32,000 nucleotides of DNA from Nanoarchaeum equitans Kin4-M (GCA_000008085.1 AE017199.1:30001-62000), one strand, 5' to 3'; shown: positions 3,020 through 24,168, counted from the first letter of the stretch. Notes: generated by a model from the sequence alone, not told the origin. Numbers and translations: made by a program.

Positions 3020-4420
3020 ATGAAACGTTTTCTCCCAGCAGTAGTAGTTTTGGGTTTAGCCCTAGCAGCACCAACAGCGCAATTGGAAGTAATAGATTAC
3101 CCTAATACAGTATATACTAAAGGAGTAATGGCGAAGAGCACAATTCCAATTACTATAAAATATAATACTACTGATGCAACAAACTCCAAGCTTATAGTAT
3201 ATTTGATAAACCAAAATGAGAAAAACTTAGCATTGATGGAAGAATACAAAATCGATGCGGGAAAAACTAAAATAGAAACTATCGAAATTCCATTATATAA
3301 TTTGCCTGATTACCCAAATGTTGATGATGGTATATACACAATAAAGTTTAGGTTAATCTCTTTTGATAACAATGGAAATACTGCGGCTGATGAAAAAGAG
3401 ATAAACGTTTCTATTAATGAACCATTTGATGTCGCACAATATGATTTAGATGTTCTAGATTTACCTTTACCAGAAGACAAAATAGTATTTACCAACACAA
3501 AAACGAAATTCCAAATCCCTATAATTTATGATGGGATAGCAAATAGCGATTATGTTACTGTAACATTATGCGCTATAGCTAATGGAATAAAATTGGCTTG
3601 CAACGATACCAGCAAAACATTAACAACAAGGGAAAACTTAGTAGAATTAGTAATGAATATTCCATCCTTTACAGGGGATGGCAAATTAATATTATCGGTA
3701 AAAGACAACAATGGGCAAAACATAGTAAAAGAATATGCTGTTAAATTTGTTGATGGCACATTAGATGTAAATGTAATGCCTGTAAGCGAAAAGGTAATGC
3801 AAGGCGAATCCACATCTATTATAGTTAGAGTAAACAACCCAATAGAAAAAAGCAGAACTGTATACTTAACAATAAAAACCCCAACAGATACAATAACCAA
3901 AACTATTTATTTAGAAGGCTATAGTAGTGCCCAATTAGTTATTCCTATAAAGGTTAAAACCAATTCAAACAAATTTAATGTATATGTATACGCAAGCGAT
4001 GGAGTATATACATACAGCAAACAATTAACATTAGATGTTGTCTCTAAACAAGATATAATAAACAACATCGATGTTAGTTATGAAAAAGACAAAATAGAGC
4101 TAATATTATATCCAAAGCAACCAGGGGTTGTGACAATAAAAGTGTTGGCCGATGGCGCTATAGTAGATCCTTCCATAAAAACCATATCTTTAGACTACAA
4201 AGCTAAAACCGTTAGTTTTAATTACAAACCATTAAAAGACACAGCAACAATAAAATTTGAAGTATATGATCTAAACAATAATAAGATAGCTGAAAAGCAA
4301 ATAAAAATAGTGCAAAAGAAAGCCCAACAATTCAATTGGTTATTACCCATAGCAATAATAATAGCCCTAGGATTGGGCCTATATTTAGGTAGAAAAAAGA
4401 AAGAAGAAATTGTTGAATAG
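3020..4420 (+). CDS. secreted multi-domain (beta-sandwich-like) surface protein with C-terminal TM anchor
   Basis: Sec-type signal MKRFLPAVVVLGLALAAPTAQ. Beta-rich repetitive composition. C-terminus WLLPIAIIIALGLGLYLGRKKKEE (TM segment plus basic tail). Confidence 0.6.
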   Translation: MKRFLPAVVVLGLALAAPTAQLEVIDYPNTVYTKGVMAKSTIPITIKYNTTDATNSKLIVYLINQNEKNLALMEEYKIDAGKTKIETIEIPLYNLPDYPNVDDGIYTIKFRLISFDNNGNTAADEKEINVSINEPFDVAQYDLDVLDLPLPEDKIVFTNTKTKFQIPIIYDGIANSDYVTVTLCAIANGIKLACNDTSKTLTTRENLVELVMNIPSFTGDGKLILSVKDNNGQNIVKEYAVKFVDGTLDVNVMPVSEKVMQGESTSIIVRVNNPIEKSRTVYLTIKTPTDTITKTIYLEGYSSAQLVIPIKVKTNSNKFNVYVYASDGVYTYSKQLTLDVVSKQDIINNIDVSYEKDKIELILYPKQPGVVTIKVLADGAIVDPSIKTISLDYKAKTVSFNYKPLKDTATIKFEVYDLNNNKIAEKQIKIVQKKAQQFNWLLPIAIIIALGLGLYLGRKKKEEIVE

Positions 4421-12813: not shown

Positions 12814-14436
12814 ATGGATAGAGAAAAAGCATTACAAATAGTGGAAAAATTTAAAAAAGAATTACCAGTTGTAGGCGCAGCTATAATACCTAATAATTTA
12901 CCAACTTTCGAGAGATATATTAAATCTCTAGTAGAAGAGGGTTATTTATTAGAAAAATTCGTTGACGAAGCGAAGAGTAAGCCCCATTTAATTATATTAA
13001 TAAAAGATTTTGAGAAACCAAATGAAATAAAAAAGAAAACTGCTGAAGTATTATACGAAGTAGCCAAAGAGAGGCCCCCATTTTGGGTTTTGCCTTTGTT
13101 AGTTAAAGAAAATTTCTTTAATTTATTGTCTAGAACAGGTTTCCTAGAAATAATGCCTTACATAGATGTTTTGTTCGATGAAATATATTTGCAAGCAGCA
13201 AAATTTGGGGGGCTATATTTATATGCATTAGCCAGAAGGTTAGGCGATGGATTAGTTGCATTTGTTTTAGCCGGCTCCGCAGCGAGAGGAGAATACAAAG
13301 AGAATAGCGATATAGACTTTTTCGTAATATATGATGATACTATAATACATAAACCAGTAAGGCATGAATTATTGTTGTTGGTAGAACCTTTTAGGATTAC
13401 CGCAGGAATAGAAAGACGTGTTAATATACAGGTTTATTCTTTGTCTTCTTTTTGGGATAGCCTTAGACAAACGAACCCAGTAATAATAACATTCTTAAGA
13501 GACGGGGTTCCATTGTATGATAGGAGAGAATTCACTATATGGAAAACCTTATTAAAAGAAGGCCACATAGTACCAACAAAAGAAGCTGCAGAACAACAAT
13601 TAGTATTAGCTAAAGCCAAATTAGAGGAGATGAAAAAGAAAATGGTTGATTTTGTTATTGAAGATAGTTTTTGGGCATCAATTGCTGCAGCACAATCATT
13701 ATTATTAGCAATAGGTGTTATAACCGTTACTCCAAAAGAAACCATAGGAGAGTTAAGAAAACTGGGTTATAATGAATTAGCAGACATAATAGAACAAATC
13801 TATAATAGAAGGAAAGAGATAGAGCATAGCGATCAAGAGGTTAAAATTGATGGCAAAGAAATAGAAGAAAAATATTTGTTAGCCAAAAAAGTTGTCGAAA
13901 ATGCAGAAAAGGAAATGCCCAAACTAGAGATTGTTGGTATGAAAAGAGAAGTAGAAGCATTAAAAACAGAAATAGAAGCTTTGTTAATAGAAATAGAAAA
14001 AACAGTTCCAAAATTATTCAATGAATTGATTGAGAAGGGCCATATAAGTAAGGAACAATTAGAATTATTGAAAAAGCCATTACCCAACAGTTTATCCGAA
14101 TTGGAAAAAATAAAGAATTCTCTATGGGATTTGTATAGAAAGTTAAGCGTTATTAGGGAAATTAGGGATACTCAATATTTGTTCCATGGCATATTAGTTA
14201 GATATAAGGGGAAAGAGTATATTTTGCTAAAAGCGGACAAATATTATTTGTATGACTCTAACGAAGATAAAGTCTATGTTGTAACTGACGAAGGCCTAAA
14301 AGAAGGGAACAGAGACGAATTAGATGAAAAACTAGAAGAAATAACTGAAGAGAGAGTGCCTATCCCAATAGAGGATCTAATAAAAATAAAACAAATACTT
14401 GGAGATGTAGAGATATTAATTAGTACCCCATATTAG
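12814..14436 (+). CDS. Pol-beta-superfamily nucleotidyltransferase domain protein with helical and coiled-coil extension
   Basis: LAGSAARGEYKENSDIDFFVIYDD (GS..RG...SDiD motif) at about residue 150. This is followed by a helical region and an E/K-rich coiled coil. Confidence 0.55.
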   Translation: MDREKALQIVEKFKKELPVVGAAIIPNNLPTFERYIKSLVEEGYLLEKFVDEAKSKPHLIILIKDFEKPNEIKKKTAEVLYEVAKERPPFWVLPLLVKENFFNLLSRTGFLEIMPYIDVLFDEIYLQAAKFGGLYLYALARRLGDGLVAFVLAGSAARGEYKENSDIDFFVIYDDTIIHKPVRHELLLLVEPFRITAGIERRVNIQVYSLSSFWDSLRQTNPVIITFLRDGVPLYDRREFTIWKTLLKEGHIVPTKEAAEQQLVLAKAKLEEMKKKMVDFVIEDSFWASIAAAQSLLLAIGVITVTPKETIGELRKLGYNELADIIEQIYNRRKEIEHSDQEVKIDGKEIEEKYLLAKKVVENAEKEMPKLEIVGMKREVEALKTEIEALLIEIEKTVPKLFNELIEKGHISKEQLELLKKPLPNSLSELEKIKNSLWDLYRKLSVIREIRDTQYLFHGILVRYKGKEYILLKADKYYLYDSNEDKVYVVTDEGLKEGNRDELDEKLEEITEERVPIPIEDLIKIKQILGDVEILISTPY

Positions 14437-15780: not shown

Positions 15781-15829
15781 ATGATGATGGACCAAATTAC
15801 AGAATAATGAAGACGACCACGGGCACTGA
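15781..15829 (+). ncRNA. C/D box sRNA (2'-O-methylation guide)
   Basis: AUGAUGA(C)-UGGACCAAAUUA(12)-CAGA(D')-AUA-AUGAAGA(C')-CGACCACGGGCA(12)-CUGA(D). Intergenic, with a GC-rich second guide in AT-rich surroundings. Confidence 0.75.
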
Positions 15830-15857: not shown

Positions 15858-16934
15858 ATGGATGAAAAAGAGAAATACAAACTAAAATCCCTCTTAAGAC
15901 AATTAAAAAGCATAGAAGGGCGGGGTACAGAATTGGTTTCCCTATATATACCATCTAACTATCCTATAGGAAAAATATTAGACCAATTGAATTACGAATA
16001 CGCTACTGCTGCAAACATAAAAGATGATACTACTAGAAAAAATGTACAAGCAGCATTAGCTAAAATAATAAACTATTTGAAAGATTTTAAGAAAATCCCT
16101 GAAAATGGGTTAGTAATTTTTGCTGGCAACATAGCAGGGAGGGGCGACCAAGATGTTAGACTATGGGCTATTGTACCTCCAGAAAAAAGTAACCTAAAAC
16201 TATATAGATGTGATTCTAAATTTTATGTAGAGCCATTAGAAGAAATGTTAGAAGAGAAAAAACTATATGGGATAGTAACTATAGATAAAGGAGAAGCAGC
16301 AATAGGTTTAATTAAAGGGCGAAAACTTATAGTTTTAGACGAATTCGAAAGCTGGGTTCCAAGGAAACACCATAAAGGAGGGCAATCCGCCCGAAGGTTT
16401 GAAAGGCTAATAGACCAAGCCACACAGGAATGGTTGCAATATGTTGCGGAAAAAGCGAGACAATATTTCGATAAATACAAAGACAAAATACAAGGTATTA
16501 TTATTGGAGGATCTGGTTTCGCTAAACACGATTTTATCGAATATTTGCCTTATTATTATAAAGACAAAATAATTGCTATTGTAGATACCGGTTATAGCGA
16601 TGCCTATGGGTTAAGAGAAGCTTTATATAGAGCAGAAGATAAATTAAAAGAATTGGAAATAGAAAAAGAGAGAAAAATTTTATCAGATTTGTTTAAAGCT
16701 ATAGCATTGGGTAGAAAAGACATCGCTTTAGGATATGAAGAAGTTAAAAAATATTTGGAACAAGGACTAGTTCAAAAAATAATTGTTATGGAGGATTTTC
16801 CCAAATTGGATGAAATATTGGAATTGGCAGAAAAACATAATGTAGATGTAGAAATAATTGAAGGAGGAACAACAGAAGCAGAACAATTTAGACCAATTGG
16901 TATAGCAGCTTTTCTATATTACGCATCAGAGTAG
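15858..16934 (+). CDS. prf1: peptide chain release factor aRF1
   Basis: GGQSARRFERL (GGQ motif), NIKD (NIKS-like), and size and architecture typical of aRF1. Confidence 0.9.
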   Translation: MDEKEKYKLKSLLRQLKSIEGRGTELVSLYIPSNYPIGKILDQLNYEYATAANIKDDTTRKNVQAALAKIINYLKDFKKIPENGLVIFAGNIAGRGDQDVRLWAIVPPEKSNLKLYRCDSKFYVEPLEEMLEEKKLYGIVTIDKGEAAIGLIKGRKLIVLDEFESWVPRKHHKGGQSARRFERLIDQATQEWLQYVAEKARQYFDKYKDKIQGIIIGGSGFAKHDFIEYLPYYYKDKIIAIVDTGYSDAYGLREALYRAEDKLKELEIEKERKILSDLFKAIALGRKDIALGYEEVKKYLEQGLVQKIIVMEDFPKLDEILELAEKHNVDVEIIEGGTTEAEQFRPIGIAAFLYYASE

Positions 16935-16974
16935 AGAAGACTCATCATTAATCAGTTGTCCTCGACTTCTTCAT
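16926..16974 (-). ncRNA. C/D box sRNA candidate spanning the 3' ends of two convergent CDSs
   Basis: Minus strand: AUGAAGA-AGUCGAGGACAA(12)-CUGA-UUA-AUGAUGA-GUCUUCUCUACU(12)-CUGA. This is the same 7-12-4-3-7-12-4 layout as the other two. Confidence 0.6.
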
Positions 16975-18219
16975 TAATATTACATTCTCTATATGGGGAG
17001 TATTAGGAAACATATCTAAAGGTTGCATGTCAATTATTTTATAACCTTTCAATTTATTTATATCTCTTTTTTGAGTATAAGGATTGCATGAAACATAAAC
17101 TATAGTATCGGGGTTTATTTTTTCGATATACTCTATAGCCTTATTTGTTAAACCTGCTCTTGGTGGGTCTACAATTATTTTGTTAGCCTTTATTATTGGA
17201 GCTTTTTCGACAGGCGAAGCAATAAATTCTGCATCTATATTGTTTATAGAGGCATTTAGTTTGGCCATCTCTACAGCTTCTTCCACAATTTCTATACCAA
17301 TTACTTTCTTAACTTCATTAGCTATTTGCAATGAAAACAATCCAACCCCGCTATACAAATCTAAAACAACATCATTTTCAGAGGGTTCTAAAAATTCCTT
17401 TACTATTTTTACTAAGTTTACAGCTTGGTAGGAATTAGTTTGAAAAAAGCTATTAGGCGATATGTAATATTCTATATCCAATATTCGTTCTCTCAAAAAT
17501 TTGCTTCCATAATAATGGTAAAGTTTTTCGCTTATTGATACATCTCCTAAATCCTCTCTAATTCCCCAATATACTGAAGTAACCAAATCTTTTATGTTTT
17601 CGATAAAATCCCACAATTCCTCAAATTTCTTTCTTTTATATGTTATTATATGGATCATCCTTTCTTTAGTAAATTTGCCCTCCCTTATCACTAAATATCT
17701 AAGAAAACCTGTGTGCTTAACTGTGTCCCAACTAGGTATTTTGTATTTTTCTATGAATTTGTTAAACTCATTTATTATTATTTCTGCTTCTTTTGAAAGC
17801 ATTTTGCATTCTTTTATTGGAATATAACCATACCATTTGCCAGGCTCTTTTAAGGAAACCTTATTATATATAGGGTAATCCATCCTATTTCGATAATAGA
17901 TAGTTTTTGGCGAAGGAATAATATCTTTATCATAGCCAAACAAATTTTCTATAACTTTTTTCTTAAATTCCAATTGGTATTGGTAATCCATTAATCCCCA
18001 TAGACAACCACCACATTTTCCTAAATGGGCACAATATTTATTGGATGTCCTATAAGGGCTTTCCTCAATTATTTTTACTATTTCCCCAATTTTCTTTTTC
18101 CCTTTCCTTCTAACTTTTACCTCTACTATATCTCCAGGGTAAGCAAATGGAACATGTATATTATTGCCCACTCCATAGCCTTTCTCGTCAAACCCCTCTA
18201 TATATATTTTCATAGCCAT
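16948..18219 (-). CDS. RumA/TrmA-type RNA (uracil-5)-methyltransferase with TRAM domain
   Basis: TRAM-like N-terminus, Cys cluster CAHLGKCGGC, FFQTN and DPPRAGL. The ORF track extends to 18291, but TTTAAATA about 24 nt upstream favours the MAMKIY start at 18219. Confidence 0.8.
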   Translation of the reverse strand: MAMKIYIEGFDEKGYGVGNNIHVPFAYPGDIVEVKVRRKGKKKIGEIVKIIEESPYRTSNKYCAHLGKCGGCLWGLMDYQYQLEFKKKVIENLFGYDKDIIPSPKTIYYRNRMDYPIYNKVSLKEPGKWYGYIPIKECKMLSKEAEIIINEFNKFIEKYKIPSWDTVKHTGFLRYLVIREGKFTKERMIHIITYKRKKFEELWDFIENIKDLVTSVYWGIREDLGDVSISEKLYHYYGSKFLRERILDIEYYISPNSFFQTNSYQAVNLVKIVKEFLEPSENDVVLDLYSGVGLFSLQIANEVKKVIGIEIVEEAVEMAKLNASINNIDAEFIASPVEKAPIIKANKIIVDPPRAGLTNKAIEYIEKINPDTIVYVSCNPYTQKRDINKLKGYKIIDMQPLDMFPNTPHIENVILMKKSRTTD

Positions 18220-18403
18220 AGGAATAACATACCAATATTTAAAGAAAGTACTATCAAATAGGAAATACAAAAATTTATATTTTGTGAACATCTAGATATC
18301 TATGACAGTATACATAAAACCAGAGATTAATTACAAAAAACCTATTGTATTGGATGATTTCTATTTTTTCGATAGACCTTATTCTGCTTTAGAAAAGAAA
18401 AAG

Positions 18404-24031: not shown

Positions 24032-24080
24032 TCAGCCGGTTTGAGAATCTTCATCTCTCGGGCGGGGATAATTTCATCAT
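24032..24080 (-). ncRNA. C/D box sRNA fused to the 3' end of tRNA-Gly
   Basis: Minus strand: AUGAUGA(C; its first A is the tRNA discriminator)-AAUUAUCCCCGC(12)-CCGA(D')-GAG-AUGAAGA(C')-UUCUCAAACCGG(12)-CUGA(D). Confidence 0.7.
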
Positions 24081-24150
24081 GCGCCCGCCGGGATTCGAAC
24101 CCGGGTCACGGGCTTGGAAGGCCCGCATCCTACCACTAGACTACGGGCGC
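24080..24150 (-). tRNA. tRNA-Gly (UCC)
   Basis: Reverse complement: GCGCCCG UA GUCU AGUGGUA GGAU G CGGGC CUUCCAA GCCCG UGAC CCGGG UUCGAAU CCCGG CGGGCGC A. No encoded CCA. Confidence 0.95.
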
Positions 24151-24168
24151 AGAGATAGAAATGAAAAC

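Follow-up and report, generated by a model that had tools for sequence, protein, structure and literature searches.

The analysed window, a stretch of 32,000 nt from Nanoarchaeum equitans Kin4-M with a G+C content of 31%, maps to the genome with an exact offset (genome coordinate = window position + 30000). It contains two convergent genes: NEQ052, encoding aRF1 (15858-16934, plus strand), and NEQ053, encoding a RumA/TrmU54-type m5U RNA methyltransferase (16948-18219, minus strand, 423 aa as called). A start is also possible 24 codons further upstream (18220-18291), by which the NEQ053 open reading frame would span 16948-18291 on the minus strand and encode 447 instead of 423 aa; the shorter form was favoured on account of orthologue lengths of 405-427 aa. 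The stop codons of the two genes are separated by 13 nt only (16935-16947), and a C/D box sRNA on the minus strand overlaps both gene ends.

From 16974 to 16926 the minus strand reads AUGAAGA-AGUCGAGGACAA-CUGA-UUA-AUGAUGA-GUCUUCUCUACU-CUGA (49 nt), base for base the layout given in a preliminary description of the locus, which was made from the sequence alone. The terminal boxes are a variant box C, AUGAAGA (16968-16974), and a box D, CUGA (16926-16929). This box C keeps both GA dinucleotides and the G pairing with the C of box D; its U-to-A change falls on the position normally forming a U.U pair. Internally, a box D' CUGA (16952-16955) and a canonical box C' AUGAUGA (16942-16948), both delimited by parsing the sequence, are joined by a UUA linker (16949-16951), giving the short-linked CUGA-UUA-AUGAUGA element (16955-16942) of a k-loop. 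Both spacers, the D' guide AGUCGAGGACAA (16956-16967) and the D guide GUCUUCUCUACU (16930-16941), are exactly 12 nt long, as in most N. equitans sRNAs.

The 5' half of the sRNA is at the same time the 3' end of NEQ053, ATG AAG AAG TCG AGG ACA ACT GAT TAA (MKKSRTTD*), as the preliminary description had read it. Box C encodes Met-Lys of the methyltransferase tail, the last five residues (SRTTD) are read from the D' guide and box D', and the UAA stop (16948-16950) lies in the D'-C' linker, consisting of the last two linker nucleotides and the first A of AUGAUGA. The 3' half is antisense to the end of aRF1, again as described, where the protein ends in ...ASE* (TCA GAG TAG at 16926-16934). The last two codons and the stop of aRF1 lie opposite box D, which is antisense to TCA-G, and the 3' end of the D guide, of which nucleotides 8-10 are antisense to TAG.

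The 49-nt motif is the gene for the N. equitans C/D box sRNA2 (NeqsR02), which has already been published. All 59 nt of the published sRNA2 correspond to 16979-16921 of the window on the minus strand, and both 40-nt flanks match too, so that locus and sequence are the same, with no difference. The RNA was recorded at 46922-46979 with 59,100 RNA-seq reads and the sequence TATTAATGAAGAAGTCGAGGACAACTGATTAATGATGAGTCTTCTCTACTCTGATGCGT (Randau, 2012, suppl. 2), and as NeqsR02 with its start at 46979 on the negative strand (Dennis, 2015, suppl. 1, PMC4644070). The mature RNA (59 nt, UAUUA...UGCGU, 16921-16979, minus strand) has RNA-seq-mapped ends; the literature data thus describe a discrete, stable RNA (Randau, 2012), and by the published read counts it ranks 4th in abundance among 26 N. 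equitans sRNAs. The gene context NEQ052->sRNA2<-NEQ053 is likewise published, with sRNA2 recorded as overlapping NEQ053 (Randau, 2012; Dennis, 2015). The original proposal of a C/D box sRNA at this locus is therefore borne out by identity to an RNA-seq-verified RNA.

A regular expression for the archaeal C/D box and spacer arrangement matched three times in the 32 kb, at 15781-15829 (plus), 16926-16974 (minus) and 24032-24080 (minus), which are the same three loci that had been singled out in the preliminary description; the other two are sRNA1 and sRNA3. In 300 dinucleotide-preserving shuffles of the window the mean number of such patterns was 0.003, compared with the 3 observed, which upholds the earlier judgement that a chance match is unlikely. 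sRNA3 (24032-24080, minus strand) abuts tRNA-Gly(UCC) (24079-24151, minus strand), its box C starting at the tRNA end, an instance of the dicistronic tRNA-sRNA arrangement known from N. equitans.

Box usage was surveyed in the 25 non-permuted N. equitans sRNAs (Randau, 2012, suppl. 2). UGAAGA serves as box C in 10 of the 25, nine of which carry UGAUGA at C', and the opposite layout, with UGAUGA as box C and UGAAGA as box C', is found in seven. The layout of sRNA2 is thus one of two common classes in N. equitans. The preliminary description had regarded its canonical and degenerate boxes as swapped; AUGAAGA does come first and AUGAUGA is internal, but with UGAAGA as box C in 10 of 25 sRNAs this is not peculiar. 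Snoscan tended to miss sRNAs of the UGAAGA-first class; for sRNA2 it is listed with 'no prediction', and PLEXY gave a D' target at 23S-2086, CTGTCmCTCGGCC (Randau, 2012, suppl. 2).

Across the N. equitans sRNAs, a UGAUGA box C is accompanied by a CUGA box D in 14 of 14 cases and a UGAAGA box C by CAGA in 8 of 10, which suggests covariation, visible at the sequence level, at the k-turn position normally occupied by U.U, with U.U and A.A as the alternatives; sRNA2 and sRNA25 are the A/U exceptions. Coding constraint was considered for both terminal boxes. That AUGAAGA is forced by the Met-Lys codons was rejected, as AUGAUGA would also be in frame and free of stops (Met-Met) and UGAAGA is box C in the same 10 of 25 sRNAs whatever their context. 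Coding was likewise rejected as the reason for CUGA as box D, CAGA being synonymous in aRF1 (TCT, Ser).

The preliminary description had further offered a permuted or circularised form, for which sRNA24 provides the precedent, an N. equitans C/D sRNA like sRNA2, whose boxes are, however, in permuted order and which is circular. On this account the functional box order of sRNA2 would be restored after circularisation. The 'weaker' variant at box C and the canonical sequence at C' would fit, as would the existence of one permuted sRNA in N. equitans and the circular forms, which were tested for and detected in sRNA23 and sRNA24 only (Randau, 2012). In sRNA2, however, the linear genomic order is already the canonical C-D'-C'-D; its guides of 12 nt and D'-C' linker of 3-4 nt resemble those of other sRNAs, the frequency of UGAAGA as box C removes the anomaly, the ends mapped by RNA-seq are 5 nt beyond boxes C and D, and the same box order is found in the Thermococcales sR45 described below. 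Permutation is thus an unnecessary assumption and extremely improbable; circularisation of sRNA2 as such is plausible.

A scan of the whole window with Rfam models at their gathering thresholds returned one C/D family only, RF01274 (sR45), at 16924-16978 on the minus strand, with 42.8 bits against a gathering score of 40, an E-value of 3.8e-7 and a full-length alignment (model positions 1-55). The base-paired 'structure' of the Rfam sR45 model was set aside, since C/D sRNAs act through k-turns. Genome contigs (596 Gb) were scanned with the pattern CGAGGACANCNGAN{2,8}TGATGA, which proved too unspecific for this volume; among the matches listed there were chance bacterial ones, and the one useful match listed was a Thermococcaceae locus, L018. 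sR45 is present in three Thermococcales loci, L018 (3129-3183, minus), L131 (806-860, minus) and L132 (2836-2890, plus), with 73-78 bits as compared to 42.8 in N. equitans. Their D' guide is GGCCGAGGACAC (beginning with AGCC in L132); the D guide reads GUCUUCGCUUCG in L018 and starts with A or U in L131 and L132. The N. equitans guides agree with those of the three loci at 9/12 (D') and 9/12 (D) positions; the core CGAGGACA is common to the D' guides of N. equitans and Thermococcales, and GUCUUC.CU.C is the D core they share. Judged by these alignments, N. equitans sRNA2 is a member of the Thermococcales sR45 family, with both guides conserved.

In the three Thermococcales loci, sR45 has the same architecture and length as sRNA2 and, like it, extends over the 3' end of the ORF upstream. 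This ORF, however, encodes a conserved protein of ~260 aa (...LEKYLEK(K/A)G) that is unrelated to the methyltransferase; box C is canonical there, its first UGA being the stop codon of the ORF, and the guides would pair without the mismatches seen in N. equitans. An ORF of 126-129 aa begins a few nucleotides beyond box D in L018 and L131, so that ORF, sRNA and ORF are packed very tightly there; in L132 the ORF downstream of sR45 encodes a different protein of 237 aa. L132 also carries sR14 and sR22, at 3807-3861 (minus) and 3898-3955 (plus), ~1 kb from sR45, as a small cluster.

For Neq sR2, the published target predictions are G2322 of 23S rRNA for the D guide and C2260 for the D' guide, in pan-archaeal alignment numbering, and the G2322 block of the published 23S alignment carries the label 'N2' (Dennis, 2015, PMC4644070). 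Both duplexes were re-derived from the N. equitans 23S rows of the supplementary alignment of that study. The D' guide forms 10 base pairs, including one G.U, with CUGUCCUCGGCC, and the N+5 rule leads to column 2260; the D guide is paired at 11 of 12 positions with GGAAGAGAAGAC (nine Watson-Crick pairs, A×A, C-G, U.G), and the N+5 rule leads to column 2322. Both columns agree with the published predictions. sRNA2 would accordingly guide 2'-O-methylation at both 23S sites, the C in CUGUCmCUCGGCC and the G in GGAAGmAGAAGAC being the predicted targets of the D' and the D guide, respectively. A search of the rRNA for targets of the two guides, as initially proposed, did locate them, but not as perfect complements: UUGUCCUCGACU and AGUAGAGAAGAC do not occur in those rows of the 23S and 16S alignments that were searched, the true sites being CUGUCCUCGGCC and GGAAGAGAAGAC. 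The A×A mismatch three nucleotides from box D, together with the terminal G.U, accounts for the missing PLEXY call at the D site. A 36-mer of N. equitans 23S rRNA, joined from overlapping PLEXY target strings, gave no match in the metagenome scan.

The E. coli equivalents of the two columns rest on the landmarks A2058 and U1939 and on the ruler of the published alignment. Column 2322 equals E. coli G2056 by the landmark A2058 in GACGG-AAAGACC, and column 2260 equals approximately C1994 by the landmark U1939 in GAAAU-UCC, which places the D' target C ~55 nt 3' of the U1939 equivalent. Direct numbering from the 23S copy of E. coli O157 was dropped, as it ran 6 nt below the standard; this copy (O157:H7, NZ_AP018488.1, 230304-233201) is 2898 nt long, versus the standard 2904, with the shortfall upstream of ~1930. 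The position at about C1994 lies in domain IV, and G2056 two nucleotides 5' of 2058, at the peptidyl-transferase centre.

By their sequences, the guides of Thermococcales sR45 and of sRNA2 point to the same two 23S columns. At guide nucleotide 7, N. equitans has a U opposite an A in its rRNA (2057-equivalent position) and Thermococcales a G, opposite a C in the Mka and Mma rows; guide and rRNA thus appear to have changed in a compensatory pattern, as inferred for Thermococcales from these euryarchaeal rows. The D guides of two crenarchaeal sRNAs of other lengths, Thermoproteus tenax sR11 and Pyrobaculum calidifontis sR58, are also predicted to act on G2322; their D' guides, however, are directed at U2301, and not at C2260 as that of sRNA2.

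The family match and the shared targets bear on the notion that the locus holds a chance set of box-like motifs in two gene tails and yields no discrete RNA. The dual coding constraint and the absent snoscan prediction could be cited for it. The Rfam score above gathering, the shuffle expectation and the conservation of the guides across phyla, at the same rRNA positions, argue against it, and the 59,100 reads with defined ends have already refuted it, so that we assign it practically no probability.

Sharing of sequence has left traces in both duplex and proteins. In aligned tails, NEQ053 extends 4-5 residues beyond all orthologues that were compared; its LMKK aligns with LLEK or LLER, so that box C falls within the last homologous residues. 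The tail of aRF1 is of normal length. The sole mismatch between D guide and rRNA, A10 (window position 16932), is the complement of the T in the TAG stop of aRF1, a consequence of the same antisense geometry, and with the pair restored TAG would become AAG and aRF1 would gain 24 residues. We infer from these alignments that the stop codon of aRF1 is kept at the cost of one base pair of the D guide. Six metagenome and Logan contigs with the same aRF1 were all 100% identical to the window, showing no variation in boxes or at synonymous sites.

The closest aRF1 outside these (82% identity) was found in L133, from the nearest uncultured relative, which belongs to the hydrothermal-vent Nanoarchaeota and is represented by contigs Ga0081592_1000301 and ERR1679394; GatD comes next there, after an 89-nt spacer that contains no boxes. 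About 2.8 kb further on, in the spacer beside CysRS, lies an intergenic C/D sRNA (13892-13939, plus strand), GUGAUGA-UGUCGAGGACAA-CUGA-UUUA-UGAUGA-UUUUGCCGAUUG-CUGA. It has the same 48-49-nt layout and the same aRF1-CysRS neighbourhood as sRNA2, but is intergenic, has a canonical GUGAUGA box C and has its own TATA-like box, TTTATAAA (13862-13869), ~26 nt upstream. Its D' guide UGUCGAGGACAA shares 11 of 12 positions with that of sRNA2, whereas its D guide UUUUGCCGAUUG has 10 of 12 in common with sRNA21 of N. equitans, namely with the D' guide; the sR45 model scores 29.9 bits only. By guide comparison, the D' site is conserved, and the guide modules look reshuffled between sRNA genes.

NEQ053 has a PabTrmU54 TRAM domain, and its best named relatives are TrmU54/RlmD-type enzymes of Pyrococcus and Thermococcus together with Nanoarchaeota proteins. 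The closest solved structure is that of P. abyssi PAB0719 (2JJQ, E = 8e-99), and scores are 334 bits against PAB0719, a tRNA-U54 enzyme, 263 against the U747 enzyme and 113 against RumA. Two NEQ053 orthologues, in L007 (70% identity, ...LLEKR*) and L008 (62%, ...LLERK*), have no sRNA after the gene end, and there is no sR45 within 6 kb of the TrmU54 gene in P. abyssi; a link of sR45 to the orthologous TrmU54 in Pyrococcus was therefore rejected. Among the genomes sampled, placement of the sRNA on the NEQ053 tail is, by locus comparison, specific to N. equitans.

A functional association between sRNA and methyltransferase has been suggested (Randau, 2012), and sRNA2 could be coupled to NEQ053 in this sense, for instance by co-expression for joint modification of one rRNA region. 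The gene overlap as such speaks for it, overlaps with putative rRNA methyltransferase genes are on record for three further N. equitans sRNAs (Randau, 2012), and the D' target is ~55 nt from the equivalent of U1939, a position modified by RumA-type enzymes. The comparative loci argue against it: no such linkage is seen in the nearest relative, in the two further orthologous loci, in Pyrococcus and in Thermococcales, and NEQ053 is closest to the tRNA-U54 enzyme. We consider such coupling quite improbable and conclude that sRNA2 is probably not functionally linked to the methyltransferase; for the overlap, genome compaction and the usual placement of archaeal sRNAs at ORF ends offer the best explanation.

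The overlap also fits the archaeal pattern of stop codons and processing. About 25% of archaeal C/D sRNA genes contain the upstream ORF's stop codon, and reviews hold that the majority of archaeal C/D sRNAs arise by processing of longer transcripts, needing only their box motifs. Mature sRNA2 starts with U, a pyrimidine, and upstream of it there is no canonical box A at -26, only CTAATA, which matches TTTAWA at 4 of 6 positions. The preliminary description had supposed excision from the 3' end of an mRNA; this agrees with the published view, with the pyrimidine 5' end and with the lack of a canonical box A. That sRNA2 instead forms a transcription unit by itself, driven by a promoter within the coding sequence of NEQ053, is unlikely, even though the weak TATA-like CTAATA lies ~26 nt upstream and the L133 homologue is preceded by a TATA box of its own: the five N. 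equitans sRNAs whose promoters were recognised have TTTAWA upstream (Randau, 2012), a box that CTAATA resembles poorly, and the initial U was taken as a sign of processing in the original study (Randau, 2012).

Under the preferred reading, sRNA2 would arise as the 3' end of the transcript of the methyltransferase gene NEQ053. On the basis of established C/D RNP biology, the subsequent steps of assembly, trimming and methylation may be proposed as follows. L7Ae would bind the terminal k-turn formed by box C (AUGAAGA) and box D (CUGA) and the internal k-loop of C' and D'; Nop5 and fibrillarin would assemble on the L7Ae-bound RNA; and nucleases would trim the flanks, leaving ~5 nt on each side of the boxes. 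The D' and D guides would then, according to the N+5 rule, direct 2'-O-methylation to their respective 23S nucleotides. Fibrillarin (NEQ125) and Nop56 (NEQ342) have been reported in N. equitans (Randau, 2012).

Being antisense to the 3' end of aRF1, sRNA2 has a D guide that is complementary at 12/12 positions to the aRF1 mRNA (AGUAGAGAAGAC), a better match than its rRNA site. On this mRNA the N+5 rule would lead to G16934, the third base of the UAG stop of aRF1. One may speculate that the sRNA2 RNP 2'-O-methylates or masks the stop codon and so modulates termination or stability, which the complementarity would permit but which we deem very improbable; nothing indicates that the pairing is used. 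aRF1 is bracketed by two C/D sRNAs, sRNA1 being sense and upstream, sRNA2 antisense and downstream. sRNA1 (15781-15829, plus strand) ends ~28 nt before the aRF1 start codon (15858) on the same strand; both of its guides are 'NP' (no target predicted) in Dennis (2015, PMC4644070), while PLEXY gave 23S-504.

Taken as a whole, the locus is almost certainly the gene of the sR45-family sRNA2, which would be processed from the NEQ053 transcript and is predicted to guide two 23S methylations. This explanation draws on the arrangement of boxes and spacers, the match to the family, the complementarity of guides and targets, and the identity to an abundant published RNA. Publications of 2012 and 2015 already cover sRNA2, how abundant it is, that it overlaps NEQ053 and which two rRNA sites it is predicted to target; what goes beyond that record is the assignment to the sR45 family, the comparison with relatives and the base-level account of dual coding. 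The feature is real and the preliminary reading of it essentially right, yet it carries little weight as a discovery. A genuine C/D sRNA missed by snoscan was nevertheless recovered from sequence alone, and the comparative loci weigh against the published functional association between sRNA and methyltransferase. For N. equitans, the locus illustrates base by base how sequence in a compacted genome serves two converging ORFs and a guide RNA at once: the tail SRTTD of the methyltransferase is encoded in guide and box sequence, and the aRF1 stop codon apparently costs the D guide one base pair.
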